Source: Haplodiscus bocki (Eukaryota). From it: 64,000 bases of DNA. The notes under the pieces are model-generated. The model ran no database searches. It worked only from the letters and a program-made list of their open reading frames with translations, and had not been told where the DNA came from. The DNA lies in the NCBI GenBank assembly GCA_965655095.1, contig OZ296648.1, forward strand, positions 155,682,001-155,746,000, written 5' to 3'. Below are positions 30,063 through 64,000 of this stretch, in pieces. The translations under genes and the position numbers were made by a program. The number at the start of each line of letters is the position of its first letter. Within the stretch, counting starts at the first letter, position 1.

Positions 30063-30497
30063 GTCAGTCCTTATGGCTATATTACTTGAAGTGCGTTCTA
30101 TTATATATACATCATGAAATCTAGCGTACTCCGGGGTCCCTTATATCACTTGTGCACAAATTGTTTGCTATCCAAAGTCGGTTTGTGTTGCTATTTTTTG
30201 CACGCTAGCATTTTCCCGCCGAATATTTCATAATTGGGTTGAAAATTATTCGTTCAACACTGTTTTTTTTCTCAAAGAATCTGCCAATTGCACGATCGAG
30301 TCTGTCAGCGTTGGATAACTCTTACTATAAATAGCCTGACGTCATGAAATACTCGATTTTGATTGCACGAGACAAAAAAGCGCGGGGAAATTTTAGCCAG
30401 CAGAAATTGAGTGTTCAAATCTTATTACACTTGCGCAAGCAAGTGTTATACACAGTCTTCGATTTCTTTTATTTCCGATCCGTTTACAACTTTCAAG

Positions 30498-30835: not shown

Positions 30836-30989
30836 AAAGGAGACACCAGGCTACCAGATTTTTTCAGACCTCCAGCTTCGTTAGAGATGCTTTTTAGTAG
30901 GATGAAGGTGTTATTTTTGAAAAAACTCCATCAAATTCTCTGATTTATTGCAAAACCTCAAGTTTTGGATGAAAAAAAAACGATCTCAA

Positions 30990-33595: not shown

Positions 33596-33596
33596 A

Positions 33597-35141: not shown

Positions 35142-38100
35142 AAATTTTCGTTCAAATTGTCTTCAAATTTTCAAATCATTCCACAGCAATTTTACTTTTA
35201 ATTTCATCGAATTTTGTAATTTCTCACCCAAAATATAAAGCAAGTTGGCTTGCTTTGTATGTCATAATTCTTTTTCAAATCAATTAAGAATGATGTTCAG
35301 AGAGTATCCAAAAATAGATCTGAGTAATTCCAAACTAAATTAGAATGGTCCGTCTTCAAGAAGTCAGCCGACAAAGAGAAAAGAGGGTATACGATGCAGT
35401 AAATTTTACAGAAGGGGCTTTAGTTGGAATATAATTAAGTTACTGATAACATTTCAGACCGAGCAACATGGCTTAGGCAGAATCTTGAACTTTTAAGCTC
35501 AAACTTTTGAACCCTTGAGTGTTGTTGACTTCCTTCAAGTCTACCCTCTAGACAGACTTGCTTGAATATTTTGTGTTTGCTAATCCTAATGTCGGTAACT
35601 GTTGTGTAACCTCAAAGCTAACAAAATAGGTTCGTTTATTACTTTACAATGCCAGGATTAATTTTGATCCCAATTTTTTAATCAACTTTTTGACTGCTTC
35701 CTGGTTTGATGTCTGCAACCTGCAAAATCTTTATGGTGTTGATTGATTTATTGAAAGATAAGCAATCACCATGGCTTGCTCCTTCGATATATAAAAATCA
35801 TTTTAGGCTAATTAAATGACCTGTTTAAATCCTGTTTTGCCCTTCTGCTTCAAAGGCCTTTTCAATTTATCCATTGCCATTTTGCGATGTAGGTCGATAT
35901 TGCGGCTTGAATGGTGGTGTCGGAACATTTGCATGGATTTTAAAGGGATTTTAAATCCATTGATGATAACTAGGGTGGCCGTCGTAAGTCTCGGATTTGG
36001 GGATAAATTGCCATCTCTATTTTACAATCATTATTCCATGCAGAAAATGCCTGTCTGTTTAAATTCGGTTAAATTGATTTTAACAACGTCCATTACCAAT
36101 GAAGAGCATTGTTCCAAAAATCTTCGTCAATACCGAAAGTTTACTGGGGTTATAACTTGTGATGACCATTTTTAAAATCAAAAATGTTTTTTTAATCAAA
36201 ATGATTCTGAGAAATTAGTGAAATAATTCCAATTATACAAGATGAGGATACATTGAAACAAATTAGGGTCTTGTACAAATCCATGTTGATCGAGAGGCGT
36301 TGCACAGCCGGAACAAGTAGCTGGCTTTTGTCGTCATTCGACAAGTAAGACGCTTTTGGGAAACCTCTCTGCGTAAGCATGCACGGTAAGTTGGCTAATG
36401 GCGGATAATTGAGGGATAACTATCACAATTGAAGTACCATGGAGTAGTGAATCTTTCAGTTAATACATGCACAAACGTAGCAAGCAAAAGAAAAGTGGCA
36501 CTGAAGAGTAGACAATTCGAAGGAGTCTCAAAAGAAAGCACGAAAAGTCCAATGTATGGTCACGCGCGTCACCAAAAAGACACCTGGTTAATTACTTCCA
36601 GGATATTATTCTTCTATAAAATTAACGAAAACTAATTGCTTGGATGACTGGGTCCGTGTACCTGTCTTGTACGACCGGACCTCGCGAGTATTTCTGCGTT
36701 AACTCCAAGTCTAGAAGTCTCGCGAAACTATTAGCTCGATCTTAATTGGTTGAGAGCTTGTGACCTCACAGGCACATGACCCTATGGGAATAGAAAATAG
36801 AATACTAGTTCTGCTGCGCCTTTGTTGAATTGGTTATAGTGAAAAAAAAACAATTGAGAATATTGGCGTGATGATTTTGCTTCCATAGAAATATGGGTGG
36901 AATTATTTCTTACGTTCCCCCCGGAAATGCGGTATTACTGCTGTGAAACCAATTGGATCTAATTTATAATCGTTTTTATTCGAAACTTATACGGTCAAAA
37001 TAGTTGAGCGGTTTGACTGCAGCTACTTCGCCTTTGAGAAAATAATAGGGGGATTTTTCTTAGTTTCTTTCCAATAATTATCCGCGGTTGAAAGGTAGCA
37101 ACTAAATGCAAGCTTTATTTGATTCGGTGCAGCCCATTGATACTTTCCGTTTCTTAGCTTGGGGCTCACTTATTGTAAATGCTGGTCCAATTTCCACGCT
37201 GTCTCCATAGATGCATTTTACTGCTATCCAAATGTGTTTTTGTGGCGAAAAAGGAAGATGGCAGTAGAGGACGACGGATTATAGCTGCTTTCCGTCATGT
37301 AACAGCAATCTCGGCTGTGATTATTTTGCTGTCTTCAAATGCATTTGATCACATTCATTAACCAGTCTTGCCCTCATTCACTCCCGTTACCAAAGCGCTG
37401 CTAGACAATGAGCATTGTATTCGCGAATTGCAAAGCTGCTGAAAGTCTTGTTGCTAAAGAAAATAATATGATGGAAAAAAGAAGAGGAAATGGATTTTGA
37501 TACACGTGCAACTTGGATATATCTATCTTCTAATATCCCGACCCCAGTTAAATATCTCCTTTTGTCTTCATTTTTTGTGTCCCCAGTTCTCGCTCCTTAT
37601 TCTGCTCCCCTTTGATTTGTAGTTGGATTGTGGGCTGATTAGAAGCAAGGAGAGACAGCTTTTTATTATCACTCTAATTGCAGTCTTAATGAAACACATC
37701 CATTGTGTCCGCCTTCTCCCAATACATATACAATCATCATCACCCGCAGAATCATGAACACAGGCATACATACACACAAAGACACGCGCGAGCCAGTACC
37801 CACCTCTGTTTCATTATAAAGGATGCGAGGAGGCTAAGGACGAGAACGACAGATACCTGTCCACATTTGACTGCAACCTTCTCCTCCTCTTATGCTGTAA
37901 CCTGTAAACCGCACATATGTGCAGATGTGAATTTATGGCCTTAGTTTTTGGTTACAGCGGATATCATTTCGGTGGAACAAATTTTGGTTTTAATTTCAAA
38001 ATGACTTGTGATAGGCTTGCGGAACAGTAAACAATTAGATCTTTTCTACAAATCCCGAATTTCTTGACTTTCTCATAGAGAATACTATGGTGTAGAAAAT

Positions 38101-46657: not shown

Positions 46658-46874
46658 TGCTGCAATGGATATACTGCTGAAGGCGAATAGCAAGAAGGAC
46701 CAACACAATGTGCAGATTCCCGAGTTTGCAACGATATACCTCAACGGACAGCAGCTGGTCAATAGTAACAACAGTAACAGCAGCAGTAGCATCGCCAAGC
46801 CTTTCCTCTTACCCAAACAGATGGTCGCCATGGGCAACAACAACCTCACAATCACAACCTCCCAGTGCTGCTGT
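46658..46874 (+). CDS. ZMIZ1: ZMIZ-family coding exon 7
   Basis: Acceptor tttgtgtag|T, donor TGT|gtaagt. Phase 2->0. KPFLLPKQMVAMGNNNLTITTSQCCC resembles ZMIZ1 [25 protein letters not shown]. Confidence 0.9.
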
Positions 46875-46890
46875 GTAAGTCGTTCCTTCC

Positions 46891-49800
46891 TGTAGAATTT
46901 TCAGGAATGTAACTTCCAACTCGATTAAACCGTAGTACCACTGTCCACGAGACGGGGGACCGGCCGAGATCCACAAAATATTTATAACTCCAAAATTAAT
47001 CAAAGGGAGATTCAACTTCGGAGGCGGTGGGGTTCTTCTGCAAAGTATATGCCTAACTCTGTAATTTTTATCGTTCAACTGAGAGGGGTGTCTCGTAGCT
47101 CTTTGACTGTTAGTTACGTAAATTGAAGAAATTTAGTGTCTGGCAAAGAATGTGAATTACTTTCTCACAGACAAATTTTCTCCGTCAATAAATACACTAA
47201 TAATAAGATAATAACTGTCAACAACACAATAACTGCAGATAATATAGCTGGTTCAGACTCACACATCCAATAATATCAATTAAATACTTCAATAAATACG
47301 TTTCAGTCAATTAAACAATTAATAGCATCGAATAATTTGGAGACAATTTATTACTATAACCTTCCGTTGTTAGTCAGTAAATCTCTCACTTATAGCGGAA
47401 TTGGATCGAACACCAAAACCACGACTCACAATTAATAAACGAAGAAATTCAAGTCTCACTAGACTTTCGAGCGAAGAAATAATCGATTTCAACAGTCCCG
47501 GAGGACTGTTCAACAATACTTCTCAAAATTACGATTTCCCAACTTCAGTCCTCGACTAAGTTGAAGAAAACAACAAACGGCTTTAAGCAAAGTAGCAACT
47601 GCCCGGCAATTCAACTCACTTTCTTTTGGCCTGTAATCGTAATCGTAACTGTTCTGATCCCAGATCAAAATAACGTTTCCGTAAAAATTCCAAAGAAATC
47701 CATAACTTCAGTCCCAGACTAAATTATGATCGCTCGAAAAAATACGACGGCTTTAAGCAAAGAAGCAACTGTCTCACAGTTCACTTTCTTTCCTTTTTGG
47801 CAGCGTTCAGGGATGCTCCTTTCGCTTACGGCACTCTTGGTTTCGTATTTTTACCGCTAGGGCTATTTTCGGCCTTGTTATTATTAATCCGGTTAATCGT
47901 ATCCATTAATTCATAAATTGACCTATCAATTTTTCGCTAGTTGATTCGTTTATTTCACTTCGGTACAATAATCATCAGTTTTGGTACTACTCGGTGTTTG
48001 TTTTCTTTGCTTACATCAGTTGTGATTAATTGATTTTGGTCGTATCCACTGGCAAAACGAGGGTCGTAAAAAATGAGTAAGAAAATACCTCTTCGTTTCC
48101 ATTCGTTTATGTCGCCATTTTGATTGACAACCTCTTTCGGCTGATGTGTCAGCTATTCTATTCGTCGCGCGTGACCAAGTAATTCCAAAATAAGTGGTTA
48201 AAATATCTTCCCTAACCATTCCCATCATAATATCCATGCAAAAATAAATGTCCGAAAAAAGGCGTAATTTTTGTCTAAAATTCAATAATTAATTGTGTCT
48301 ATCATATATGTCCTAAATATAACATGAGCACATCATTACACGCGGTATTCAATGTAGCTTCTAGCAATGTATACTTTGTTATAGTTATTTTCAATATTCG
48401 TTGTCGAAAAATGCGATTTTCTGAAAGTAGTCAAAATTCCATGTCCGAAAAATCGATTTTTGGTCATTCTGAGGTCATTTTTGTCAACGTATGATTTTTT
48501 TCCAGGGCGGGGGTGGTATTTTCCTGTTAGTACATTCAAGTAAGAGTTTTTTAACGAAAAGATGAGCTCTCTAGCTGGTCTCAAAAAAAAGTTATTCAAT
48601 TTTCCGCAAAAGTACCGATTTTGGCCATTTTTGACTACCTGGGTCCACCTTCAAAGTCGATTTTCTCAACGTACAGGCAAAATTTCGGAAAATCCTTGGT
48701 CAGTTTCCTGGGGGAGGTTGTTAGGAACATTGTGTTAAATTTTGGGCTTTCTATCTCTGCTGGCCTGCGGGGGGGGGGTAGCCGTTTTGCAAGTCGACAT
48801 TTTCCAAAATCCGTGATTTTAGCTAGCTGCAATTTTTTGGGGCGGCCATTTGTAGCTTACTATGCTTGTTCTATTGTTATTTTCCTTTCCTCCTAATAAT
48901 AAGCTTTCGATCGCTGTTAATATGATCGATTTCTATTGGCTACTCGTTAACTAATAAGCGAAAAACTGCGATTTTTGACGGTTTTAGGCTGTTTTGGGCG
49001 TTTTTTGGCTATTTCTCACTCAGTTCTCCAAAATGACTGAATATAATCGATTCATCTTTTCAGGGACATTATTCCATTCAAATATCTTCCGTTTAAGACT
49101 AATACGAGCTTTTTCTGATGCGTGGTTCGCTCAGAATAAATTTTTAACTGAAGTCAATTTGGCCATTTCTGGAGTGCACTTTCTGTTTACTACAATTTTT
49201 CAATATCTTAAATTCGTCCGATTTTGCTCATATTCCAAATTTAAGCTTTCCTATGGATGTAGTTTACAATGGTGCAAACCGTTTGTCGATATCTTTTTTC
49301 ATCTTCGAGAAATAAGCAAGCAAACATTGGGGAACATTAAAAAAACAGGTCTAATTTTGAGCAGCGTGAGCGTAAATATGCTAATACGTGGGGTGGTGGC
49401 GGCCGTGCGCGTGGTCAAAATTCATTCCAAAATCACTTCTATTGTATTCCTTTTGTATTTATAACAATTTGTGTCCACTCCGCTTTCACTTTTAAACGCC
49501 TCCAAAGTTGCAAGTGAACTGTGAAATCACAATTGTACCATTTTCCGGAACGTAATAATGTTCGTTTTGATTTTTCAACAATTTTTAATTTTCAGAATGC
49601 GGTGAAAATCACCCAACTTGTTCGTCTTGGAATGTAGTTTTCATTGGTGGAAACCGTTTTGCTCTATTCATAATAGTCTTCGAGAAAATGGACGTCAAAG
49701 TTGGGGTTCGAATTGGACCAACTTTTGAAATTTATACTGCTGTTGCTTTGCTATGTTAATACACGTGACAAGGTCGTTCTAAAATAACTATTACGTGCTC

Positions 49801-50086
49801 CGCGGCTTGTTCACATTCCAACGTCGTGCTTATTCAGTTCAATATTCACTTTTCACGTATCATTCTCACTGCTAAATTTCACTCAATTCACGTGCACTGA
49901 CTCAGCAAATTTCAATTTTGCAAAAATGGCAAATATGATGGACTTATTTCCTAATTTCTGACCATCAACCTATTTTCAGCTATTAAATACGTAACTTTAA
50001 ATCGCAAATGGAAGGTTCATAATATAGATCAAGGTTAAGATAATGTTGAAACAAAACAAAAAAAATTGTGTACTACAAATCCCACA
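46891..50086 (-). repeat. 3' LTR (3196 bp)
   Basis: Direct repeat of 59371-62551. On the minus strand it starts TGTGGG and ends TCTACA, and is adjacent to the PPT. Confidence 0.96.
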
Positions 50087-50098
50087 TTCCCCCCCACT
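50087..50098 (-). promoter_or_regulatory. Polypurine tract
   Basis: Minus strand AGTGGGGGGGAA immediately precedes the TG of the 3' LTR. Confidence 0.9.
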
Positions 50099-50443
50099 TG
50101 GAGTACTACTCTCCCGAGTAGTTGCCGGGGTTTAAAAAATTGTTTTCATCGTTCTAAATCACTTATCAGTATCCACGTGCAAGTAATTTCAACTGTAATT
50201 TGCTTTCAAAGTAACCTAGCTATAAAAACATCTTGAGTACCCTTGAAAATCAATTAACTTATTTCAATTCTAATTCGTCCAAGTGGTGGTACACGTTAGA
50301 TTGTTGGTCAATGCAGGACCTTTTCGTACGTCGCTCTGTAAGGAGGGCAAATAAATACAGGTGGGATCACCAGAGCAACATCATACAATGATATTATTAA
50401 CATCAAATAAATCTTACGTTTCATAGGAGGAGAAGTTTGCTGA

Positions 50444-52707
50444 CTAGTTTTTCATCAGCGGCTTTTTCGAGCTCGTTTCTCCCTGGGAGATTTTCGGGGG
50501 AGCAGACTTCTTTGCACTCTCTTTCTCTAACACACTTTCTTGCGCTCCGTCGATGTTGCTCAACTCCAATGCGGCGGCAGCGGCAGTCGCTTCATCGTTG
50601 CTTCTAAATCGTTCCACGTACTTCTTCATTGCATATAGCTTCCCCATCTTTAGGGCCCAGCCTAACAATAGTAACAGCCCCAAAGTAATCAAAGTGGCCC
50701 CACACGGCAAAATAACATCTCTCCAGATTTTCTTCACGATTGTTGTGTGAACTTCCTCAACCTCTTGCATAAATGGCTGTACTACTGCCGCCAACATTTC
50801 TTCAGTAATACGGCGATCAGGCAAACCTGCTAAATTCAACTTTAAGTGCGATAACAAATTCTGATGGACATCTCCCATCAGTTCAGGAGGGATAACATCT
50901 TCTAATTCTTTCAGTCCTTCGAATAAGGGACGCAGCAAGGGGGTGGGTAAAATTCGTACGATATCGCTGGCTTCTTGAATACATGTAAGGGGATCTGGAG
51001 TTAGGAATAAACCAGCGTTCGGAAGTTGCAACCTACCTTTACACGAGGGCTTAACTAAGCAACTTTGGCATCCCGGGACACGAATTTCTCCTTGCTCTGT
51101 CAAATTTTGCATTGTAAAATCTCCCTTTGCGGATGTTAAAAGATACGTCGAATCAAACAAATACAGGGCTTGCGGATGTTGAGGTAGCGCGACAACTTCT
51201 TGGGCACACAGTTTCAGGACGGTAGCGGGAAGATTAAAATACAGGCCGGTTAAGCAAGTGGTCTGCTGCGATTTAGTTGTCGAAAACGGTTGTTTACATA
51301 AGCGTAGCCGGTGCCAACCCCAACAATGGGTAGAAAGTTCCTGCTCGGTGACTTCCGCAAAATTCGTTTTATCCCATGACATCAACAAGTGCGTTTTCGA
51401 CAGATGGTATTGCGTCGCACGTTCGGTCTGCGGTATCGGTTGGGGAATAGGGGTTGCTCGGAATACGTCGTGCACTCCGTGTCCCGTATAAAGAGGTATC
51501 TCGATCAGCAAATGCAACCCCTCGTCCGGAATATAAGCGTCTCTCACAACTTCAAAAGTATAATACGCGGCTATTAGTTTTCTCGGAATCGCCTCGTTCA
51601 ATCCGTACATCTCAAACGTGTCTTAACTTTTCGAAAGGATCGTCGGAGGAATCAACGCTATCGGCAAGTATCCGTGAACTAATGAAGCCATCGCATCTTG
51701 CATTAAGGAAGCCATATTAGCCAGCGAAATACGTTGCTGGTTTACATCGTTTAGTAATCGACGGTATTGAATCGTTAAATTCTGAAGAGACGCTGCGATA
51801 ATAAGAGTGTTACGATGTCGGTCTTGCGTATGTCGAGCGACGCACTCTCCTTTTTCTACGTAGTCCTTAATCTCTTCAAGTACTCCTCTAATTGTCTCGT
51901 TTAACATTTCTACGTTTTCTTGCAGGCTTCTTTTCAAAGCGGGGAGCTTTCTCCTCTCAACGTCGGCCGGCATTCTAACCGTTATCGCTTCTAACAACTT
52001 AGACTTCAAATAGAAAACATTTTCTTCTAAATCCTTAACTTGCTCGGCTAAGGCTTCTATTTTCTTCCGTTCGTCTTCCTTACAAAGTGAACCAAAAGGG
52101 ACTAACTTGTCAACAAAACATGAAAATTTATCTGCTATCGGGGCCGTAAAGGGTCTTAGGAAAACTCTGGATAGTTCACTTCCTAACGCGGTTCCAACAA
52201 TTGGTACCAAGAGAGATCTCTTGTACCTATTCGGTCTTTCAAACGTTCGATCTTGCAAAGAGCTATTTAAAAACACAGTAAGCGATTGCCTCATAATCTC
52301 GAGATCCGTTTTGAAAATCTGATGACTCTGGAAAACCTCAGCTAAATTATCACGTAACAATTGCTTCCGATACGAGAAGAGGTGCGTGTCGGGGCATTCG
52401 TGTTGGAACATCCTAAGGTCTAGGTCATTCAATTCAAACAAAGCTTGATCCAAGATCTGATTCAAGGGTTTGGGATCAAGCTGGGGTATCTCGGGAAAAG
52501 GAATGTTGGTCCACAAGGTTTTAAGAGCTTTTACTAACGCTACCGGCGGTTGAGGTGTAAACGCAGCGCCTGAGATTGAGTGTGATCCATTGACAATTCC
52601 CAGAGTGTCTTGTCGTCTATGGAAGTCCCACTCCTATTGCCCGGAATTAGCACGGAATTAGGAACTCCTATTGCCGCAAAAACTAGGAATAACAACAATC
52701 TCCTCAT
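50444..52707 (-). pseudogene. env: env, class I / baculovirus-F-like fusion glycoprotein (one N-terminal frameshift, one in-frame TAA)
   Basis: Signal peptide MRRLLLFLVFAAIGV (ATG 52707). Furin site RYKR|SLLVPIVGTALG (52217-52228), heptad repeats, Cys-rich ectodomain and TM ILPCGATLITLGLLLLLGWAL. ORFs 51623-52516 and 50444-51610 are in frame, separated by TAA plus 4 codons. Confidence 0.88.
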
Positions 52708-52728
52708 CGTAAGGGAAGAAAAACGAAA

Positions 52729-52753
52729 CTTGAGGGAAAAATGAGGTAGTTAG
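52729..52753 (-). promoter_or_regulatory. Putative env splice acceptor
   Basis: Minus strand CTAAC (branch point), then a pyrimidine tract, then AAG|, 21 nt upstream of the env ATG. Confidence 0.6.
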
Positions 52754-53399
52754 AAATAAATGTTAATAGCACAAGACCGTGGACAGTGTAAGGCGTTAAA
52801 ACGACTGTTCATTAGGTTGGTCGGCAAGTGAATGACGGGAACAGCGTAAGTGAATTGCCAATCAATTCCGATCGTGGTGTCTCGTACCGCGACAATTGTG
52901 GAACGGGATTGGTCAATACGAACCATTAGTAGTTCGCTCGATGGGTTCGCCTAATCGGAACGAATGGTGAGCTTGCATTACTTCAGGCGACTCTGCTCAC
53001 CGGCAAGAGTCATGCCCGAAGTCTATCTTCGTTATTTACATCTATTAACAAATTCGTCTATCCCGAATCGCACAGGCAGTCTCCTAACTCTACTTTCTCG
53101 GCCTGTCGGGACATCCGAATCTCGTTGCGATTCATTTTGTGAATCATGGTCAGTGTCTAAAGGTCTTTCGGGTGCATCGTTACGCACGGTGCTCCTTTCA
53201 CTCTCGCTGTTTTCTGAGTCATCGCCCGGTATAGTTTCGTAGGCGGTCAAATGCGGCGAAGTCTGGCGTTCAACATTCTCATCGTGTGGTGTGTTTCCGA
53301 TTTCCGACTCGGAGTCTTGCTCTACGATTTCTGGTATCGTTTTAAACGTTACCTTAGGTCTATTTCTCGCGGCTTGCGACTCTGCCGTCGTCGTTTCAA

Positions 53400-56300
53400 T
53401 CACATGGAACGGGCTGTCTTCGTTTTCTCCTCAGTTTCTACATCGTTCGGGATTTCTTCGTAAATCGGAGGGGGTCGGTTTTTAAGCCTACTGGAGTGTC
53501 GTACTTCGGGATTTCCTCTATACGGTTTTAAGCGGTTAAAATGTACCTTTTGCCACTTTTCTTTATTTCCTCGTTTACAAATCGTGTAAGTGACCTCACT
53601 CGTTCGGCTAAGAACCTCGAAAGGACCGTGCCAAGGCAAATAAAACTTTCTGGACTTCGCCTTGTGAGGTTCGAACAACCAAACAAGGTCTCCTTCTTTA
53701 AACGGTTCGCCATGTACTTTTCTATTAAAATACTCTCTTTGTCGTCGTTGCTCGGTTCCCATAGTCATTTGCGCGTCTCTATGGATTTCGTATAAGCGTT
53801 CATTTAACTGCTCTGCGTGTTCGCCTAGCTCTAGTCTCGGGTCTCCCGGGGGTTTCGGGACAAACAAATCTATGGGGTATTGCGCTTCCCTCCCAAAAAT
53901 CATGGAGTACGGCGTCGCTCCAATCGTTCGGTGGACGGTGGTGTTATACACAAAAGTAATATAAGTCAAATACACATCCCACTCTTGTGGTTTTTCAGCA
54001 CAATATTTTGAAAGCGTATCAGCAATGACTCTATTAAATCTCTCGACCTGCCCATTTCCTTGGGGATGATACGGCGTAGTTCTTGTTTTCTCAATAATAA
54101 AAATTCGGCAAATGTCGTGCATTAATTCACTGTTAAAATTCGAACCCTGATCAGTATGAATCACGTCCGGCGCTCCGAATTTCATTATCCACTCGTCTAT
54201 TATGGCGTTTGCCACGGTCGCAGCCGTCATATCTTGTAAAGCCACCGTTACGGCGTATTTCGTAAACAAATCACTCATGACTAGGATATATCTGGCCTTA
54301 GATTTCCTAGCTAACGTTACGGGTCCCAAAATGTCTGCCGCCATAGTTCTAAACGCTCCGTGGACAGAAAAAGTTTGCAATTCCTCTTTTCGTTTAATTC
54401 CAGCGGTAGATCTAGCCGCACAACGATCACAATTAGCTATATGTTTTTCTACACTCGTTTTAAGTGAAGGCCACCAAAATCTCTGTTTTATCCTTGCTAA
54501 AGTTTTCTCGACGCCAAAATGTCCACCACTCATTGGAGAATCGTGTAACTGATACAAAATCTCATTTCTCATTTCTTTAGGAATAATCGCTTGCCAGCAT
54601 TCATTCACTCGATTACTAGGCTTCCATTTTCTATACAAAACTCCGTTAGATGTCGCAAGGTCTTCCCAATTACTCCAGAGTTCTAATGCGTCGAGGTTCC
54701 CCCAAGATTGGGCTTCCTCCTTGTAGATCGGATTCTTTCCGAAAGTACAATGCGAATCTTCTAAGTTTACACCGTATCGTTCAAGTGCACAAATAATGAT
54801 CTTAATTGTCGAGTCGGCCCGCTGCCGTTTCGCGAGTTCACTGTCGGACCTAGTCCACGAAATTCGTTCTTTTACACCTTTATTCATTAACATCTCCTCG
54901 GGAGTTACTACTGCGCAATGATTTGGTTCTCTTGAGGTGTTTTCACGAGAATGGGAGGGGATTGGATGGAAGTGTTGTTCGGCTTCGGGAGTGTATACAG
55001 TTAAAGTACAGTAGACATCTTGAAAGATCGACTCGAGACAAATAGCAACGTTCGTCCACTCTAATCGGTCATCAACAACTCCGATTCTAGGCATTGCGAA
55101 ACACGAAACGCCTTTCAACGCCGCATGCGCACTCATTTCTCTCAGACACGATTTCAAATCATCATATTTTGCAACGTCGGTATACTTTTCTTTAGTCATC
55201 AACAAGTAAATATATCTCGATTGCTCGCTGTCCCAATACACTAACATTCCTCCAACACGATTCACAGAATCTTCTGTCGGTCTTAAATGCGAATATCTAA
55301 CGACAAATTCCGTCATTGGCGACGATTTAACTCGCATGTCGCCTGAGACGCAAAAAACCAACGAACTGGACGATTCCATAAAATTTCCCGTTGCATATTT
55401 CACTACTTCTCTCGGAGGATGGGGGACTTGTATTCTAGCGTGCGCTATTACGTCCGTATCTTTCCTTTTCGAGGAACTACCGCTATTTAAATCTTCTTGA
55501 GCACCACCGAGCGCCGTCTCCATCGTCTGAAATTCCGGGATTTGTCCTCGCAACTCTTCTTCGCCTTCTTTCCATTCTGGCCTCTCATTGGGCCTTCTAC
55601 TAAGTCCGTCGGCGTTACAGTGTTTTTCTCCCGGCCTATGAACTATTCGATAATTGTATTCTTGCATCTTCTGAATCATTCGGAACGTCATTCCGTCGGC
55701 GTTTTGTCTAAATAGCCACTGAAGGCTCGCGTGATCGGTCCTGACTATACATTGCGACCCATAAATGTAAGGACGGAACCACTGCATCGCTTGTACAATA
55801 CCTAGCGCTTCTCGTTTCGTTGTGGCGTAATTTACTTCCGTCTTACTCAAAACTCTCGACTCAAAAGCTATCGGACGCTCTTCTCCATCAAATATTTGCG
55901 ACAAAACCGCACCGAGTGCCGTTTCACTTGCGTCTGTATCAATCACAAAGGGGTGGCGAAAATTCGGGAACGCTAAATTCGGAGCCTGTAACAATCTCGT
56001 TTTCAATAACTGGAACGCATCTTCGTGTTCTTTTTCCCATGTAAACTTCAATCCTTTACTAGTCAATCGGTACAAAGGTTTGGCGACTTCTGCAAAATTT
56101 TTCACAAACTTTCGATAATAATTACAAAACGCCGTGAAAGATCTCACTTGGGTCACCGTCTTCGGACGTTCCCAATCTCTGACTGCTTCTAATTTTTTCG
56201 GATCGGGTCTAATTCCTGTTTTATCCAACACATGGGCTAGATAATTCACTTGAGTTTGAAACAAATCGCACTTCTTGGGCTTCAATTTCAATCCGGCCGC

Positions 56301-57347
56301 GCGCAATTTTAGAAAAACTTTCTCTAAGTGCTCTAAGTGTTGCACCGGCGTCTCACTATAAACCAACAAATCGTCCAGGGAAATTAAAACATGCTTAAAG
56401 AGGTCTTCTTTGAAAATTTCGTTCATGAGTCGCTGAAAAGTTGCCGGTGCATTCGTCAATCCAAACGGCATTTTCACAAATTCGTACAGACCACCTTCCG
56501 GTGTACAAAAAGCGGTTTTATGTCGGTCCTTTTCTGCTACTGGCACTTGCCAATAACCACTGGCTAAATCAAGCGACGAAAAATATCCTGCGCCTTGCAA
56601 TGCGTCTATCGTTTGTCCTATCCGAGGAAGAGGATACGCGTCCTTCGTCGTTATCTCGTTTAACTTGCGATAATCTTTACACATTCTGTTCGTTCCGTCT
56701 TTCTTGGGGACCATTACAATCAGACTGCTATACGGACTTTTACTAGGGACGATTACTCCTTTATCTAACATTTCCTTGATTTCTTCTTGAACCGCAGGCA
56801 TTTTATATGGAGCAACTTTGTAGGGAGCAATTTTAAAAGGCGGGTTGTCGTTAGTGTCTATAAAACGTTCCGTCCCGATTGCAGTTCCGAGCGGATCTTT
56901 TGCCAGCGCAAAAACGTCGCGGTAATTACCAATCAAGCTAATCAACTTTTCCTTTATTCGACTATCTTGCAAGTCCGAGGCGGCTAATTCAACGATTTCA
57001 TTTACATCTTCGTCATTTTTCCCTAATACTTCGTAAGAGACAACTGGTTCTTCGATTTCGTCTTCGGTTTGGAGGACGCAAGCCCTCTCGTCGGTCGGTG
57101 GTTCTAAGCGGTCTCCTACGTATAAGGGGACTGTCGTTTCGGCTTGATCTCTTATTCGAATTTTGAGAGTTTCATTCTCAATGTCAACTTGACACTTGTT
57201 ATCGCAAAGGAATTTTAGACCAATCAACACATGTGGGTACAACTCATCTACTACAATAAATTCGTCCGTACTTTTTTGTTTTCCAAACGTTACTTCAGCT
57301 AACATTTTTCCGTCTATGGGCATCACGTTGCCTATCGGGCCTAACAC
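53400..57347 (-). CDS. pol: Pol: protease C-terminus, RT, RNase H, macrodomain insert, integrase
   Basis: RT motifs LDLASGYWQV, MPFGLTNAPATFQR and SLDD. RNase H motifs DTDAS, TKREALG, RTDHASL and NADGLSR. Integrase H...H...CDRC, ADILGP, HTDQGSNF, GQVERFNR and a GPF motif. A +1 A at ~53424 detaches the acidic C-terminal tail (53032-53403). Confidence 0.95.
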   Translation of the reverse strand: MLGPIGNVMPIDGKMLAEVTFGKQKSTDEFIVVDELYPHVLIGLKFLCDNKCQVDIENETLKIRIRDQAETTVPLYVGDRLEPPTDERACVLQTEDEIEEPVVSYEVLGKNDEDVNEIVELAASDLQDSRIKEKLISLIGNYRDVFALAKDPLGTAIGTERFIDTNDNPPFKIAPYKVAPYKMPAVQEEIKEMLDKGVIVPSKSPYSSLIVMVPKKDGTNRMCKDYRKLNEITTKDAYPLPRIGQTIDALQGAGYFSSLDLASGYWQVPVAEKDRHKTAFCTPEGGLYEFVKMPFGLTNAPATFQRLMNEIFKEDLFKHVLISLDDLLVYSETPVQHLEHLEKVFLKLRAAGLKLKPKKCDLFQTQVNYLAHVLDKTGIRPDPKKLEAVRDWERPKTVTQVRSFTAFCNYYRKFVKNFAEVAKPLYRLTSKGLKFTWEKEHEDAFQLLKTRLLQAPNLAFPNFRHPFVIDTDASETALGAVLSQIFDGEERPIAFESRVLSKTEVNYATTKREALGIVQAMQWFRPYIYGSQCIVRTDHASLQWLFRQNADGMTFRMIQKMQEYNYRIVHRPGEKHCNADGLSRRPNERPEWKEGEEELRGQIPEFQTMETALGGAQEDLNSGSSSKRKDTDVIAHARIQVPHPPREVVKYATGNFMESSSSLVFCVSGDMRVKSSPMTEFVVRYSHLRPTEDSVNRVGGMLVYWDSEQSRYIYLLMTKEKYTDVAKYDDLKSCLREMSAHAALKGVSCFAMPRIGVVDDRLEWTNVAICLESIFQDVYCTLTVYTPEAEQHFHPIPSHSRENTSREPNHCAVVTPEEMLMNKGVKERISWTRSDSELAKRQRADSTIKIIICALERYGVNLEDSHCTFGKNPIYKEEAQSWGNLDALELWSNWEDLATSNGVLYRKWKPSNRVNECWQAIIPKEMRNEILYQLHDSPMSGGHFGVEKTLARIKQRFWWPSLKTSVEKHIANCDRCAARSTAGIKRKEELQTFSVHGAFRTMAADILGPVTLARKSKARYILVMSDLFTKYAVTVALQDMTAATVANAIIDEWIMKFGAPDVIHTDQGSNFNSELMHDICRIFIIEKTRTTPYHPQGNGQVERFNRVIADTLSKYCAEKPQEWDVYLTYITFVYNTTVHRTIGATPYSMIFGREAQYPIDLFVPKPPGDPRLELGEHAEQLNERLYEIHRDAQMTMGTEQRRQREYFNRKVHGEPFKEGDLVWLFEPHKAKSRKFYLPWHGPFEVLSRTSEVTYTICKRGNKEKWQKVHFNRLKPYRGNPEVRHSSRLKNRPPPIYEEIPNDVETEEKTKTARSM
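54990..55406 (-). other. TARG1/OARD1 (Poa1p-like) macrodomain embedded in Pol
   Basis: RYIYLLMTKEK...YDDLKSCLREMSAHAALKGVSCFAMPRIGVVDDRLEWTNV...LTVYT aligns with human TARG1 RYIYYLITKKR...[40 protein letters not shown]...ITVYT. Confidence 0.9.
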
Positions 57348-57903
57348 GGTGCGGGTGCGGGTTTACGGGTTTTCCAACAAGGGACGCCATGTGGCGGCTA
57401 ATTAAACTGGTACTTGCTCCAGTGTCTACAATGGCCCAACAGGGTAGGTCCTCTACTTCGCATTTTACCCACATTCCGGGGCTTCGTCTAAAGTTTCCTG
57501 TTGCTACAACACTCGGTTCATCCGTATTTTTCGCTTCAAATACTACGGGTTCGTTTCTCTGTAGGGTCCTGAGAGATCCAGTTTCTGCGTTACTGATTTG
57601 CGTTTCAAAGGGGGGATTTCGTGCAAAGCGATTGAGAGGGGGTTCATTTTTAGGGAAAACGCCACCTGGGCCAAAATCCTCGTTCATTTGGTTCCAAGTG
57701 GTCTTATCAACGTACCTCGATCGCGGATTCCGGCCGTATCGATTCTCTGAGCTCCGCGACCTATCTCTGTTTGTTACGTGCTCTCGACCGCTAAACTGGC
57801 TAAAGTTTTGGGGCGGGTTTTCACTTAGTGTAGCAGTTGAAGAATTATAAATTTCAGGGGCGGAGGTACCTGCTACTGTAGCTCCGGCTGAACCCAGTTT
57901 AAA
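57295..57903 (-). pseudogene. pol: pol N-terminus / aspartic protease (frameshifted into RT ORF at ~57348)
   Basis: WAIVDTGASTSLIS retropepsin active site. An apparent 2-nt loss (CGT GTG TTA -> CGTGTTA) separates it from ORF 53400-57347. Confidence 0.9.
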
Positions 57904-59288
57904 TGATCGCTTTTGTTCGTTCGTTTGGGACAGTCGCGCGCAAAATGCCCTATTTCTTTACATTCATAGCATTCGGCTCTCGAGGGAGGTGGATTTTTTA
58001 AACTCACGTGACCGAACGGCTTGTTTGGAGCGAAACGGCTGTTCGTGTTCTGATGCGACTGTGGCTGCGGTTGTGTCTGTGGTAACTGCCCAGAACTGCT
58101 GCTGCGAGGACCACCAGCAACTCCCACCAACACTGTCTTCAGGTCGGTCATCGATGCGGCCATCGCTGCTGTCATCACTGCTGGCATCTGCGTCATCACT
58201 GCGGTCAGCTGCGTCAGGTTGTCATTCATGCTCTTCATCAGCTGCTGGGTAGCGTCTCCCTGCCTCGCTACCGTCGCGTCCAGCTTGTCTAGTCGATTCG
58301 CCACTGTGCCCATCGACGTCTGCAAGGCTGCAAACTTCTCCTCCACCGGACCGTGAGAGTTCGGGAAGCTGGCCCTGACCACATTGTCCTGCTCCCAGTC
58401 GTCATAAGAAAATCGCACTCTGTCTGCTCGTGTCGTCTTGTCTCGTCTCTGGTCCACATCCCTTGCATTTTTCTGGATCAATTCCAGTTCTTGTGCGCGC
58501 TGCAAAACTTCACAAAAATTACGACTTGTTTCATCTTCGTACAATTTTTGCTGGAGCCTCGAGTCAAAAAGCCCTTCTGATCACGCAGATCTTTGTCTTT
58601 CTCTTCTAACGTTTTTTCACAGAGTGCTAAGTCACCTAGGTAACGGACGCGTCTAAAGTACTCTTTTAAGCACTCATTTTCGTTCTGTCTAACTGATTTA
58701 AACTCGCTACGGGTCGCCCTAGGACTCCTATACTGTTGCATTTTTGGTTTAAGAACCTCTAACAAAGTTTCAAAAAATGGGGCCTCTTCCCCGGGTACTT
58801 TTTCGATATACTTGCGTGGAACGGTTTCGAACTCCTCCACTGCCCAGGACGTTAAACAAGCCGGTAGTGCCGCGATAGCTTGTTGATCTGTCCAGCCGTT
58901 CGCCTTTGCCACAGATTTGTAATGCTTCACCCATAACTCCCATCTGTTGAAGTCTTTCCCAGGGAATTTCTCTGGCTTGATAGGGGACTTCTCGTAAACT
59001 GCTTTCGTCTTCCGCTGCCGCACGCCCAGAGATTCTGCAAAGATAGATTCGTCACTATCAGAGCCACCTGTCGTACCCAACTCCCGAAGTCTGAACTGCA
59101 AATCTTTCATCTGCATTCTCAAATCGTGTGCTGCTCTTCTTTCTCCTTTCTCTCCCCGCATGGAAGAAAAACCAAAACCAAGTTTTTTCGATCCTGCCCT
59201 GGCATCCTCTTTGGAAACGTCTTCGAGGTTCCCACTGACACCGGGGGATTCCACTTGCTTGCAAGTCTGTTTCGTTGTCAGACGCCAT
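57873..59288 (-). pseudogene. gag: gag (capsid-like region, coiled coil, CCHC knuckle) with two frameshifts
   Basis: ATG 59288 (MASDNETDLQ). Removing a GCAA duplication at ~59255 joins ORF 58478-59254 (KPEKFPG..W..W, LRDQ). A deletion at ~58577 joins ORF 57873-58544, which ends in CYECKEIGHFARDC. Confidence 0.9.
57897..57903 (-). promoter_or_regulatory. -1 ribosomal frameshift slippery heptamer T TTA AAC (gag->pol)
   Basis: Gag codons CAT TTA AAC give X XXY YYZ just before the gag stop. The -1 frame is open from here into the protease ORF. A CGGAG...CTCCG stem lies just downstream. Confidence 0.8.
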
Positions 59289-59350
59289 AATAATCGTGAA
59301 GGGATAAGGGAAGTTTCTCAATAACGATATTGAATAAATCAAGAGTCAAT

Positions 59351-59369
59351 AGCCCACCCAGGAGCGCCA
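59351..59369 (-). promoter_or_regulatory. Primer-binding site complementary to tRNA-Asn 3' end
   Basis: Minus strand TGGCGCTCCTGGGTGGGCT lies 1 nt from the LTR. Its complement AGCCCACCCAGGAGCGCCA closely matches animal tRNA-Asn(GUU) 3' ends (...GAGCCCACCCAGGGACG-CCA type). Confidence 0.85.
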
Positions 59370-59370
59370 C

Positions 59371-62300
59371 TGTAGAATTTTCAGGAATGTAACTTCCAAC
59401 TCGATTAAACCGTAGTACCACTGTCCACGAGACGGGGGACCGGCCGAGATCCACAAAATATTTATAACTCCAAAATTAATCAAAGGGAGATTCAACTTCG
59501 GAGGCGGTGGGGTTCTTCTGCAAAGTATATGCCTAACTCTGTAATTTTTATCGTTCAACTGAGAGGGGTGTCTCGTAGCTCTTTGACTGTTAGTTACGTA
59601 AATTGAAGAAATTTAGTGTCTGGCAAAGAATGTGAATTACTTTCTCACAGACAAATTTTCTCCGTCAATAAATACACTAATAATAAGATAATAACTGTCA
59701 ACAACACAATAACTGCAGATAATATAGCTGGTTCAGACTCACACATCCAATAATATCAATTAAATACTTCAATAAATACGTTTCAGTCAATTAAACAATT
59801 AATAGCATCGAATAATTTGGAGACAATTTATTACTATAACCTTCCGTTGTTAGTCAGTAAATCTCTCACTTATAGCGGAATTGGATCGAACACCAAAACC
59901 ACGACTCACAATTAATAAACGAAGAAATTCAAGTCTCACTAGACTTTCGAGCGAAGAAATAATCGATTTCAACAGTCCCGGAGGACTGTTCAACAATACT
60001 TCTCAAAATTACGATTTCCCAACTTCAGTCCTCGACTAAGTTGAAGAAAACAACAAACGGCTTTAAGCAAAGTAGCAACTGCCCGGCAATTCAACTCACT
60101 TTCTTTTGGCCTGTAATCGTAATCGTAACTGTTCTGATCCCAGATCAAAATAACGTTTCCGTAAAAATTCCAAAGAAATCCATAACTTCAGTCCCAGACT
60201 AAATTATGATCGCTCGAAAAAATACGACGGCTTTAAGCAAAGAAGCAACTGTCTCACAGTTCACTTTCTTTCCTTTTTGGCAGCGTTCAGGGATGCTCCT
60301 TTCGCTTACGGCACTCTTGGTTTCGTATTTTTACCGCTAGGGCTATTTTCGGCCTTGTTATTATTAATCCGGTTAATCGTATCCATTAATTCATAAATTG
60401 ACCTATCAATTTTTCGCTAGTTGATTCGTTTATTTCACTTCGGTACAATAATCATCAGTTTTGGTACTACTCGGTGTTTGTTTTCTTTGCTTACATCAGT
60501 TATGATTAATTGATTTTGGTCGTATCCACTGGCAAAACGGGGGTGGTAAAAAATGAGTAAGAAAATACCTCTTCGTTTCCATTCGTTTATGTCACCATTT
60601 TGATTGACAACCTTTTTCGGCTGATGTGTCAGCTATTCTATTCGTCGCGTGTGACCAAGTACTTCCAAAATAAGTGGTTAAAATATCTTCCCTAACCATT
60701 CCCATCATAATATCCATGCAAAAATGTCCGAAAAAAGGCGTAACTTTTGTCTAAAATTCAATAATTAATTGTGTCTATCATATACGTCCTAAATATAAAA
60801 TGAGCACATCATTACACGCGGTATTCAATGTAGTTTCTGGCATTGTATACTTTGTTATAGTTATTTTCAATATTCGTCGTCGAAAAATGCGATTTTCTGA
60901 AAGTAGTCAAAATTCCATGTCCGAAAAATCGGTTTTGAGGTCATTTTTCTCAACGTATGATTTTTTTCCAGGGCGAGGGTGGTATTTTCCTGTTAGAACA
61001 TTCAAATAAGAGTATTTTAACGAAAAGATGAGCTCTCTAGCTGGTCTCAAAAAAAACTTATTCAATTTTCCGCAAAAGTACCGATTTTGGCCATTTTTGA
61101 CTACCTGGGTCCACCTTCAAAGTCGATTTTCTCAACGTACAGGCAACATTTCGGAAAATCCTTGGTCAGTTTCATGGGGGAGGTTGTTAGGAACATTTTG
61201 TTAAATTTTGGGCTTTCTATCTCTGCTGGCCTGCGGGGGGGGGTAGCCGTTTTGCAAGTCGACATTTTCCAAAATCCGTGATTTTAGCTAGCTGCAATTT
61301 TTTGGGGCGGCCATTTGTAGCTTACTATGCTTGTTCTATTGTTATTCTCCATTCCTCCTAATAATAATCTTTCAATCGCTAGTAATATGGTTGATTTCTA
61401 TTGGCTATTCGTTAACTGATAAGCGAAAAACTGCGATTTTTGACGATTTTAGGCTATTTTGGGCGTTTTTTGGCGATTTCTCACTCAGTTCTCCAAAATG
61501 ACTGAATATAATCGATTCATCTTTTCAGGGACATTAGTCCATTCAAATATCTTCCGTTTAAGACTAATACGAGCTTTTTCTGATGCGTGGTTCGCTCAGA
61601 ATAAATTTTTAACTGAAGTCAATTTGACCATTTCTGGAGTGCACTTTCTGTTTACTACAATTTTTTAAAATCTTAAATTCGTCCGATTTTGCTCATATTC
61701 CAAACTTAAGCTTTCCTATGGATATAGTTTACAATGGTGAAAATCGTTTGTCGATATCTTTTTTCATCTTCGAGAAATAAGCAAGCAAACATTGGGGAAC
61801 ATTAAAAAAACAGGTCTAATTTTGAGCAGCGAGAGCGTAAATATGCTAATACGTGGGGTGGTGGCGGCCGTGCGCGTGGCCAAAATTCATTCCAAAATCA
61901 CTTCTATTGTATTCCTTTTGTATTTATAACAATTTGTGTCCACTCCGCTTTCACTTTTAAACGCCTCCAAAGTTGCAAGTGAACTGTGAAATCACAATTG
62001 TACCATTTTCCGGAACGTAATAATGTTCGTTTTGATTTTTCAACAATTTTTAATTTTCAGAATGCGGTGAAAATCACCCAACTTGTTCGTCTTGGAATGT
62101 AGTTTTCATTGGTGGAAACCGTTTTGCTCTATTTATAATAGTCTTCGAGAAAATGGACGTCAAAGTTGGGGTTCGAATTAGACCAACTTTTGAAATTTAT
62201 ACTGCTGTTGCTTTGCTATGTTAATACACGTGACAAGGTCGTTCTAAAATAACTAATACTTGCTCCGCGGCTTGTTCACATTCCAACGTAGTGCTTATTC

Positions 62301-62551
62301 AGTTCAATATTCACTTTTCTCGTATCATTCTCACTGCTAAATTTCACTCAATTCACGTGCACTGACACAGCAAATTTCACTTTTGCAAAAATGGCAAATA
62401 TGATTGACTTATTTCCTAATTTCTGACCATCAACCTATTTTCAGCTATTAATTACGTAACTTTAAATCGCAAATGGAAGGTGCATAATATAGATCAAGGT
62501 TAAGATAATGTTAAAACAAAACAAAAAAAATTGTGTACTACAAATCCCACA
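59371..62551 (-). repeat. 5' LTR (3181 bp)
   Basis: Direct repeat of 46891-50086, followed on the minus strand by the PBS. Confidence 0.96.
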
Positions 62552-63366
62552 CTTCCTTAAGCTACTTTCTATTCACTTCCTCACGCGAGCGATCTATTTC
62601 AACCAATTAAATGCTGTTTATGAAGCGCAGGTATTGTGCATAATCGTTAAAGCGATTCTATTGATGACAGTTATTAACAAGTCCATGAAATTTGGTTATA
62701 TTTTCGAATTTACAAAACGTATGTGTTCGCTAGTGTTCGGCGGCGACTAACCGAACACAACCGAAATGAGTAAATCAAAAAGCGAAGCGACGTTTCAGAG
62801 TAAAAACCGACAGTATTAATGCATAATAGGTGAAGTAGCAATAATGGAATTTAGCGAACTTTTCGCGAGTAAGCACATCTAACCAATGAGAATTACTTAT
62901 AGCCATTGAAGATTGGTGGAAGTTCCCCCTCATAGAAGGAAAATTTGAGCTTCACGTTGAAGTGATGTCACTTTACTGAGATGCTGGCTGTAGTTTTGGT
63001 CTGCTTAAAAGAAAATAGTTGTTCTTGGATAATTAAATTTGTTTCAACTCCCGAAACCAAACCGATTTTGTTCAGAAAGCGTACCAAATTGAACCGCGAA
63101 GTTTTTTCCAAAACCGCTGAACTCTAGTGTCCGCATTCGAACTCGCAGGCCCAGTTGCCCTTAAACGCTTATAATTGGAAATTAGAAAAAGCTTTTCAAA
63201 TTTTCGTCTTGTTACAAGGCAAAATCGAAGCTTTAGTTTTATCAGAAAAAAAGTTTAAATGAGTGTAATTATGAATGTTTTATAGAACGTATGATTCTCA
63301 TTATTTTTAAAAGTTTAATTTCCTTGACAGGTGTTGTTTGCAAATTTGAATTTTGTTTCGTTTCAG

Positions 63367-63472
63367 CTCTTTTCATTTGAGCTCAGGTATGTGCATCGTC
63401 CAACTGTGGCAGAAGCGTTGAAGACTCTATTGGCTAAACGCCGACTCGAATCCGATAGCTGCATCGCAAAAA
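63367..63472 (+). CDS. ZMIZ1: ZMIZ-family coding exon 8
   Basis: Acceptor tttcgtttcag|CTC, donor AAA A|gtaaaa. Phase 0->1. LFSFELRYVHRPTVAEALKTLLAKRRLESDSCIAK aligns without gaps to ZMIZ1 [35 protein letters not shown]. Confidence 0.9.
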
Positions 63473-63730: not shown

Positions 63731-64000
63731 TCAAAGAAGTTTTCCGGAAGAAACCAAAATTAGAAAAGCGGCTTTCCAACGGAGACTTCTGTTCATCCAA
63801 ATCTGGATCGGCAGTTCATTCTACGTCGGAGGCTTTTGACGTGAAAAGGGGCGGAGCTTTATCTCACTGTGGGGGCGTCGCCACTGATGATGATAGCAGT
63901 CCAGAGTGTCTGGATCACACTGTACCCCTTACATGTCCCATCACTCGTCAGTTGATGCGCTACCCAGCCAGAGGAGACCAATGTGAACACATCCAGTGTT
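63731..64000 (+). CDS. ZMIZ1: ZMIZ-family coding exon 9 (SP-RING/MIZ zinc finger; runs off window end)
   Basis: Acceptor ctttttttag|TC, phase 1. Translates to IKEVFRKKPKLEKR...VPLTCPITRQLMRYPARGDQCEHIQC, matching the SP-RING consensus ([27 protein letters not shown]). Absent from the ORF track because it has no stop in the window. Confidence 0.92.

Follow-up and report, generated by a model that had tools for sequence, protein, structure and literature searches.

In the 64,000-nt stretch of Haplodiscus bocki DNA analysed here (the window), an env-bearing Ty3/Gypsy (Metaviridae) retrotransposon lying antisense within an intron of a ZMIZ gene carries two long terminal repeats (LTRs) that are identical over 1131 bp on the U5 side and differ by about 2.9% elsewhere. 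The age of the interior predicts 14-20 differences in the identical block and none is seen. The best reading, which we propose with a probability of about 0.73, is therefore that one copy of the block replaced the other in place once the element had inserted, either by DNA-level conversion or by the element's own cDNA.

The element and its insertion site

The element has TG...CA ends, a direct LTR pair, a short target site duplication (TSD), a primer binding site (PBS) and a polypurine tract (PPT); its domains follow the order gag, protease, reverse transcriptase (RT), RNase H and integrase, as in Ty3/Gypsy, and its named homologues are gypsy-type polyproteins that are 40-50% identical. The left TSD, the PPT and the PBS-like sequence were recognised in the letters themselves.

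46662-46874, plus strand: exon of the host ZMIZ-family gene, up to the GT donor of the invaded intron (match to PF25527 above cut-off, E 3.2e-6)
46886-46890, no strand: left TSD, CTTCC, intron positions +12 to +16
46891-50086, minus strand: 3' LTR, 3196 bp, with the PPT adjoining
50087-50099, minus strand: PPT, adjoining the 3' LTR on its internal side
59352-59369, minus strand: PBS-like sequence, its initial TGG separated from the 5' LTR end by one base
59371-62551, minus strand: 5' LTR, 3181 bp
62552-62556, no strand: right TSD, CTTCC
63367-63471, plus strand: probable next host exon beyond the invaded intron (AG acceptor, open frame)
63925-64000, plus strand: host zf-MIZ (SP-RING) coding sequence (PF02891, E 9.6e-9)

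A Pfam search of the candidate exon at 63367-63471 gave no match. The TSD is 5 bp long and perfect on both sides, which the earlier note had held against a simple crossover; the argument stands, and a plain crossover between two insertions is rejected because the TSDs match and host exons flank the element on either side.

Coding regions

57873-59288, minus strand: gag with a CCHC knuckle; frameshifts near 59265 and 58578, putative start codon
57897-57903, minus strand: slippery-type heptamer in the gag/pol overlap, candidate programmed -1 frameshift, presumably a natural feature
53032-57933, minus strand: pol (protease, RT, RNase H, macro-like insert, integrase); frameshifts near 57345 and 53426
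54990-55403, minus strand: TARG1/OARD1-like macrodomain between RNase H and integrase (PDB 2l8r and 4j5q, E 1e-16)
50444-52728, minus strand: env-like ORF; frameshift near 52633-52651, stop at 51623-51625

Natural family ORFs of 1635 aa start at 57933, and intact family members exist with a 1635-aa pol and a 753-760-aa env. The Pfam Macro match to the pol macrodomain (E 0.048) is below cut-off; in a literature search for a macrodomain in gypsy pol, neither macrodomain nor TARG1 appeared among the matches listed, a result that does not argue for their absence. A third ORF lies between pol and the PPT; it is conserved in the family (clusters of n = 472, 206, 47 and 17, with representatives of 745-827 aa) and has a signal peptide-like start, a furin-like RYKR site, long helices and a transmembrane segment. 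The env may be of the F type, as hinted by its Atlas (language-model) features, which score 0.93 to the Fusion_gly and Baculo_F clusters at a recognition value below the Atlas threshold. The env sequence had no match in Pfam or PDB, and its structure model (pLDDT 48.9) is too poor for fold assignment, with mixed fold matches at TM <=0.23.

Comparison of the LTR pair

46891-48021, minus strand: identical block, U5 side, 3' LTR copy, 1131 bp (exact match to 59371-60501)
59371-60501, minus strand: identical block, U5 side, 5' LTR copy (exact match to 46891-48021)
48022-50086, minus strand: diverged U3-side part of the 3' LTR (compared with 60502-62551)
48882-49010, no strand: dense cluster, 13 differences in about 130 bp (scan P ~0.012, uncorrected)
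47949-47954, minus strand: AATAAA, candidate poly(A) signal, one of two on the LTR minus strand

The earlier note had described the identical block and, by hand count, about 59 substitutions and three indels in the remainder; the exact 1131-bp match and the LTR comparison agree with both. The 59 substitutions in the 2065-bp diverged part comprise 31 transitions and 28 transversions (p-distance 2.88%, K2P 2.94%), and the indels measure 4, 10 and 1 nt. At this rate 32.6 substitutions are expected in the block, close to the figure of about 30 put forward before, and zero are observed. When 62 events were placed uniformly in simulation, the longest identical run averaged 239 bp with a maximum of 709, and a run of 1131 bp was reached in 0 of 200,000 simulations; the analytic P is 1.7e-12 for a terminal run and is bounded at 1.1e-10 for any position. 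Uniform LTR divergence is thus rejected, the identity tract being significant against the overall divergence of the pair (chance ~1e-10 or less). The true end of the tract is bracketed only, with a 95% lower bound on its length of ~1031 bp.

The first difference (48022) lies 68 bp upstream of the AATAAA at 47949-47954, which is inside the block, as the earlier note had estimated (~70 bp); the chance of a boundary so near this hexamer is 4.4-9.4% (windows of 70-150 bp). Judged from the hexamer, the identity switch may fall near R. A random conversion tract would have no reason to end near the putative R.

The diverged part is itself uneven, with the dense cluster, possibly a patch imported from another family copy, and a difference-free gap of 254 bp from 49415 (P ~0.019), both scan values being uncorrected for the five window sizes tried. 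Nothing clear was found for CpG decay (6 of 31 transitions at CpG) or for a GC-biased direction (28 vs 18, P 0.18) among the LTR differences.

Age of the interior

The element is not young. Its 8397 coding nt hold five frameshifts and one stop, and no long homopolymers lie near these frame breaks (longest run 2-4). As to the earlier question of whether other copies share the frameshifts, the breaks are not family-wide, five of the six being read through by natural family proteins or by L001 (a relative found in GTDB, see below), and at the sixth the family contigs vary in length. Residues are changed at 32 of 1613 family-invariant columns and at 12 of 804 deeply invariant columns (1.5-2.0% overall); at deep columns the changes amount to 1.4% here versus 0.2-0.6% in five full-length or nearly full-length members (1503-1635 aa, excluding P0124), while the full-length member P0124, at 1.2%, is close to this copy.

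Pooled with the stop, internal decay is 0.63% (0.33-1.07) or 0.87% (0.60-1.22) per base, which predicts 14.2 or 19.7 differences in the block (zero seen, P 6.9e-5 and 1.9e-7). From the frameshift rate, 2.5 indels would be expected in the U3 part, where three are observed. The 59 U3-part differences exceed the 25.7 or 35.7 predicted by the internal clock (P 0.003 and 0.012; without the dense cluster 0.022 and 0.099), and the interior has one stop, where half the U3 rate would give 5.4 (P 0.03). This U3 excess means that one event is insufficient for everything. The warning in the earlier note that standard LTR dating would mislead stands for the parts, since the block reads zero and the U3 side 2.9%, but not for the whole LTR, whose 1.85% happens to fit the 1.3-1.7% of the interior.

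Read depth and family relatives

Depth evidence was taken from Logan contigs, in which the flank contigs end 27 bp inside the LTR, and from 40 of 2315 variant rows, four of them in the block; residual depths are available for 19 of these 40 rows, and the value for 52943 was calculated manually. The family is very abundant, with a summed depth thousands of times that of the flank, where single-copy depth is ~52. In both samples, contigs from the unique flank enter the LTR without branching and keep the depth of the flank, and the insertion appears to be homozygous. The unique flank differs from the runs at 0 positions in 856 bp and at 1 in 2518 bp.

At 7 of the 29 listed internal rows the residual depth is 0-57 in both X1 and X2, i.e. 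no more than single-copy depth, and thus no donor with those defects was seen; over seven sites the rare allele is retained in 7 of 14 run-by-site cells, at a depth of 17-57 (at most one copy). Other rare internal alleles leave more, namely 91 and 78 at 52943, 185 and 103 at 57679, and several hundred at others. Some of these alleles are therefore common to a few copies, and part of the apparent decay is inherited. Within the block, the letter at 46961 is held by 0.3% of depth and that at 47923 by 0.13% in X2 and 4.1% in X1. The residual depth of 78.7 at 47923 in X2 would fit two copies, but it carries little weight as proof of them because internal site 52943 gives the same value.

The two U3s have minority letters in common at 48827, 49183, 49727 and 49917 and are therefore close kin. 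At 5 of 5 visible left/right sites the right-LTR letter occurs in other copies, in a table that shows only that direction. Summed contig depth is 3.0-4.8 times as high in the U3 bins as in the U5 bins, the change falling in the bin that holds the boundary, and in X9 three contigs exit the LTR at 48092 into different sequence with a minus-strand AATAAA.

With the pol query, relatives were found in 5 of 43 stretches from GTDB genomes, only L001 being close (~90% DNA identity, without LTR sequence), in 0 of 7 stretches from IMG/VR and in 0 of 49 from JGI metagenomes; a 20-nt LTR pattern had no matches in JGI metagenomes.

Probable homogenisation in place and its alternatives

Three origins had been offered in the earlier note: (a) a young insertion mobilised in trans, with U3s from two RNAs, (b) an older insertion with LTR-LTR conversion, and (c) an assembly or polishing collapse. 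Internal decay supports (b). Option (a) is disfavoured because the frame breaks are not family-wide, the retained rare alleles are at single-copy depth and the insertion looks homozygous.

We consider it somewhat probable that ordinary DNA-level LTR-to-LTR gene conversion made the block. The element would have inserted once as a unit with identical LTRs, as the TSD and the standard model suggest, and would then have decayed in place by an estimated ~0.6-0.9% per base. At the U5 end one LTR would have been overwritten by the other over ~1.0-1.13 kb, within the last tenth or so of the time implied by the U3s, probably by homologous recombination without net crossover, in the form of synthesis-dependent repair or of unequal exchange followed by contraction. 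The U3 sides would have retained their differences and may perhaps have gained some from other family copies. Internal decay shows an element older than the tract, and the TSD and host exons show flanks that were not exchanged, two of the features looked for in conversion. Intra-element conversion is well documented: according to PMC5751070 it affects 23% of angiosperm elements and 36-55% of those in spruce, with a preference for long LTRs. The present tract is long but ordinary.

The same end product could come from the aged copy's own cDNA, made with proteins from intact family members, which would have replaced R-U5 of the 3' LTR and left the U3s untouched; a cDNA or minus-strand strong-stop piece would link R-U5 of the 5' LTR to U3 of the 3' LTR and recombine with the parent locus. 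This route, which we think unlikely, predicts a tract that reaches from the U5 terminus as far as R. It is favoured by the closeness of the boundary to AATAAA, by the depth step and the X9 contigs, which hint at a module border, and by the intact members as helpers, and the cDNA would presumably match its parent far better than family copies, which are mostly 90-95% alike. In yeast Ty elements most recombination is conversion by cDNA, according to the available part of a review (PMC5371812), but the yeast evidence does not establish the route in animal germ lines, the position of R is putative, and DNA-level conversion is common. Literature searches for this cDNA-conversion pattern had no such report among the matches listed.

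It is quite unlikely that the element is a young chimeric insertion, or underwent later replacement of its interior, with interior and 3' U3 derived from a decayed family copy and the 5' U3 supplied either by a young resident copy or, through intermolecular plus-strand transfer, by another RNA. Such an origin would explain the excess U3 divergence and fits the single contiguous stretch formed by interior and 3' U3, the one-directional sharing of right-LTR letters and the ~two-copy depth of 52943. Against it are the retained alleles at one copy or less, the apparent homozygosity and the near-private block letter at 47923 in X2, and its donor must have been lost or dropped from the contigs. In standard reverse transcription a single minus strand is the template for both LTRs; option (a) therefore needs an extra intermolecular plus-strand transfer, and recombination at R gives two identical chimeric LTRs. 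In Arabidopsis Onsen, old and defective members do enter replication via recombination at R, and the product ends in two identical LTRs (PMC5668417, available text).

An artefact in which the U5 side of one LTR was written into both places is improbable. High family abundance is the setting in which repeats collapse, and zero differences are the signature of collapse, but the unique flank matches the runs and the frame breaks lie outside long homopolymers. The block letters at 46961 and 47923 are rare in the family, so the block was not polished toward the family majority, and a collapse would not be expected to leave two thirds of the repeat untouched and to end abruptly.

Comparison with known systems

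Intra-element conversion in plants (Cossu et al. 2017, PMC5751070; Jedlicka et al. 2020, PMC7251063) likewise leaves a perfect tract in an otherwise diverged, TSD-flanked pair of long LTRs and distorts dating. The present case differs in being an animal element with an independent internal clock, in having a tract that reaches the U5 terminus and ends near the putative R, and in its length of 1.0-1.13 kb, compared with typical tracts of 222-428 bp (PMC5751070) or mostly 100-1000 bp (PMC7251063). The cDNA-mediated conversion of Ty1 and Tf2 (PMC5371812, available part) would likewise leave U3 and TSD as they were and place an R-U5 tract in the 3' LTR; it was shown in yeasts with marked, expressed elements, whereas the present case is known from sequence only. 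Onsen recombination resembles the present case in having junctions in R, putative here, and contributions from old defective copies, but the new insertions described in the available text of PMC5668417 carry the same chimera in both LTRs and not two different U3s. Env-carrying Ty3/gypsy elements ("errantiviruses" in the broad sense, PMC13524379) likewise have gag, a pol with PR-RT-RH-IN and a third, env-like ORF, whereas the pol described here holds a TARG1-like macrodomain and the env is without Pfam or PDB sequence match. The available main text of PMC13524379 has no mention of acoel, Xenacoelomorpha, macro or TARG1.

Significance

As a single case, the element cleanly illustrates, in an animal, a known bias in LTR dating, in which conversion resets part of the clock that dates insertions. 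It would gain weight if the boundary lies in R and the pattern recurs, because the hundreds of full-length copies in the family would then make it possible to test directly whether resident copies in an animal germ line are edited by retrotransposon cDNA. That an aged, defective, env-bearing element rewrote R-U5 alone of its own 3' LTR via its own cDNA is doubtful at present. If true and general, it would leave a directional signature from 5' to 3' LTR, with U5 identical and the boundary in R, and in families that still have active helpers insertion ages read from U5 would be systematically too low.

Structure of the element and its LTR pair

The element is bordered on both sides by a 5-bp CTTCC duplication, having been inserted as a unit, and the order of its PBS-like sequence, genes and polypurine tract places it on the minus strand. 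Structure and domain order identify it as a Ty3/Gypsy member, with the following parts:

46891-50086, left (3') LTR, 3196 bp
50087-50099, minus strand, polypurine tract
minus strand, third ORF, after integrase and ahead of the polypurine tract
minus strand, pol, with protease, RT, RNase H and integrase in this order
54990-55403, minus strand, TARG1/OARD1-like macrodomain between RNase H and integrase
57897-57903, minus strand, slippery-type heptamer in the gag/pol overlap
minus strand, gag with CCHC knuckle
adjoining 59371, minus strand, PBS-like sequence
59371-62551, right (5') LTR, 3181 bp

In a protein cluster search the third ORF grouped with proteins 745-827 aa long, and it may resemble an F-type envelope; the element is similar to the env-carrying elements of the survey PMC13524379. 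The macrodomain matches solved human structures (E 1e-16) and could, speculatively, counter host ADP-ribosylation. Pfam Macro also occurs in two more distant pol matches (P0059 and P0072), so macrodomains in pol are not confined to this family. The gag/pol frame change is taken as natural because the slippery-type heptamer lies there and the pol ORF of intact members starts at 57933. A stem is predicted after the heptamer (-13.9 kcal/mol, without a shuffle control).

The earlier note had described the LTRs as identical over 1131 bp from the left end and diverged beyond, and alignment of the two LTRs confirmed this: 46891-48021 and 59371-60501 (the block) show no difference, while the remaining 2065 bp differ by 59 substitutions and three indels (4, 10 and 1 nt). 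Its argument against uniform divergence also held, as at the diverged rate of 2.88% the block should hold 32.6 substitutions, and 0 were observed. No identical run this long arose in 200,000 simulations with events placed uniformly, and 0 differences in 1131 bp limit the divergence of the block to at most ~9% of that of the diverged part (95% bound). The identical tract is sharp. Its end is localised only to within ~100 bp. The diverged part is itself non-uniform, with 13 events within 130 bp starting at 48882 (P about 0.012, uncorrected). Because the parts of the element show minus-strand orientation, the block is the U5 side of both LTRs and the diverged part is U3.

Host locus

The insertion is antisense to a ZMIZ gene of a host that is probably an animal and lies in one of its introns, 11 nt past the GT splice donor; ZMIZ domains are encoded to either side. 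It lengthened the invaded intron (46875-63366), previously about 0.8 kb, to 16.5 kb. For organism A, the unique-flank contig of each of the two samples enters the LTR at the depth of the flank and without branching, suggesting that the insertion is nevertheless homozygous in both. These runs may be what the assembly was built from and do not count as independent evidence.

Elsewhere in the window, a degenerate tandem array of 118-119-bp units occupies 32653-35150 in two runs. MITE-like, long imperfect inverted repeats occur at 20328-20922 and 23974-24297 (245 bp at 78%; a self-complementary stretch of 331 bp at 71%), and a dispersed direct repeat of about 416 bp (75% identity) at 6289-6684 and 30431-30837.

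Family abundance and relatives

Copies related to the element are present in coral metagenomes, and the family is very large. When contigs of four runs were set against flank, left LTR and interior, summed depth was about 52 for the flank, 43,000-65,000 for the interior, 180,000-202,000 for U5 bins and 600,000-870,000 for U3 bins; these sums are used for ranking only because they are not copy numbers. The majority of aligned family contigs are 90-95% alike. Contig depth on the U3 side (47900-49899) is 3.0-4.8x that of the U5 side; there are also many joints, and contigs have loose ends around 48069-48092. Other elements appear to share this U3 combined with a different U5. Gypsy-type pol sequence also occurs within bacterial MAG records (L001:1-2912 and L002-L004); L001, about 90% identical to the element's gag-pol, is probably animal DNA binned into a bacterial MAG.

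Decay of the interior and the internal clock

The interior has decayed: a stop codon lies at 51623-51625, and the frame is shifted near 59265, 58578, 57345, 53426 and 52633-52651. At the breaks in pol and env, natural family proteins continue without interruption, L001 is gapped at 58576 and 57346 relative to the element, and length at 59265 varies among family contigs. Columns were compared in the nearest protein clusters (15 listed of 512 pol members, 15 listed of 472 env members): this copy is changed at 32 of 1613 columns invariant among listed members and at 12 of 804 invariant also in sister families (deep columns). At deep pol columns it is changed at 1.4%, three of the four longest members at 0.2-0.6% and the fourth at 1.2%, and shorter members at 0.5-8%. 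Pooled with the single stop, the decay amounts to 0.63% (0.33-1.07) or 0.87% (0.60-1.22) per base, taking coding and LTR sequence as equally mutable. The copy is not young. Part of its changes are inherited rather than decay in place, and several rare internal alleles are common to a few other copies. Among the rows listed, rare-allele residual depth was 0-57 in both runs at 7 of 29 internal rows; retained rare alleles (7/14 run-by-site cells) had a depth of 17-57, at most one copy. Of the seven deep pol changes, two coincide with listed rows, and both have residual depth 0-57.

For the block this clock expects 14.2 or 19.7 differences and none was observed (P 6.9e-5, 1.9e-7); the block is therefore too young for the element. 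For the U3 part it expects 25.7 or 35.7 against 59 observed (P 0.003, 0.012; after removing the dense cluster, 0.022, 0.099), and the U3 part is therefore somewhat too old. For the whole LTR it expects 39.8 or 55.4 against 59 observed (P 0.12, 0.43), and the frameshift rate predicts 2.5 U3 indels where 3 were observed. Minority letters are common to both U3s at four listed sites, and the two are therefore close kin within the family. The U3 excess may come from patches of highly abundant U3-like copies, from faster mutation in AT-rich sequence, or from a chimeric origin.

Origin of the identical tract

We propose, with a probability of about 0.73, that, after insertion, the tract in one LTR was overwritten by that of the other. 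The usual route, DNA-level gene conversion between the LTRs, would be somewhat better than an even bet. Among the options of the earlier note, an older insertion with LTR conversion is favoured, and a young insertion is disfavoured by the aged interior and a donor not seen. Cossu et al. (PMC5751070) report that intra-element conversion affects 23% of elements in angiosperms and 36-55% in spruce, is commoner in long LTRs and has tracts of 222-428 bp, rice excepted; Jedlicka et al. (PMC7251063) found it in 25% of LTR pairs, usually over 100-1000 bp, with longer tracts within than between elements. Against these figures, the present tract is at the upper end of the range or slightly beyond. The mosaic works like known intra-element LTR gene conversion, two of four listed features being found here.

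Conversion of the 3' LTR by the element's own cDNA is a second, unlikely route. Such cDNA carries R-U5 from the 5' LTR linked to U3 from the 3' LTR, and in the 3' LTR it would replace exactly R-U5, a geometry that fits if R lies at the tract boundary. That position is favoured by the minus-strand hexamer, which lies 68 bp inside the block much as the earlier note had it (chance 4-9%), by a step in contig depth in the boundary's own 500-bp bin, and by three contigs of one run that diverge from the LTR at 48092. Yeast Ty recombination is dominated by cDNA conversion, according to a review (PMC5371812); among the papers it listed, our literature search found no description of a U5-only conversion pattern.

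A young chimera or a replaced interior is improbable. A chimera accounts for the U3 excess over the clock, and old Onsen copies recombine at R during bursts (PMC5668417), but recombination at R yields two identical LTRs. The decayed donor was not found in the contigs of two runs, where rare variants drop out, so its absence is unproved. The right-LTR letter is present in other copies at 5/5 visible left/right sites (48060, 48065, 48309 and 48323 by eye from loose ends, 48917 from the variant table), a count that is no test of the chimera because the tables can show that direction only. Assembly collapse, equally improbable, is opposed by the accurately assembled flank, by rare letters found within the block and by a tract edge that is sharp and one-sided. 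The mosaic LTR pair looks like a real and clean case of an already known process.
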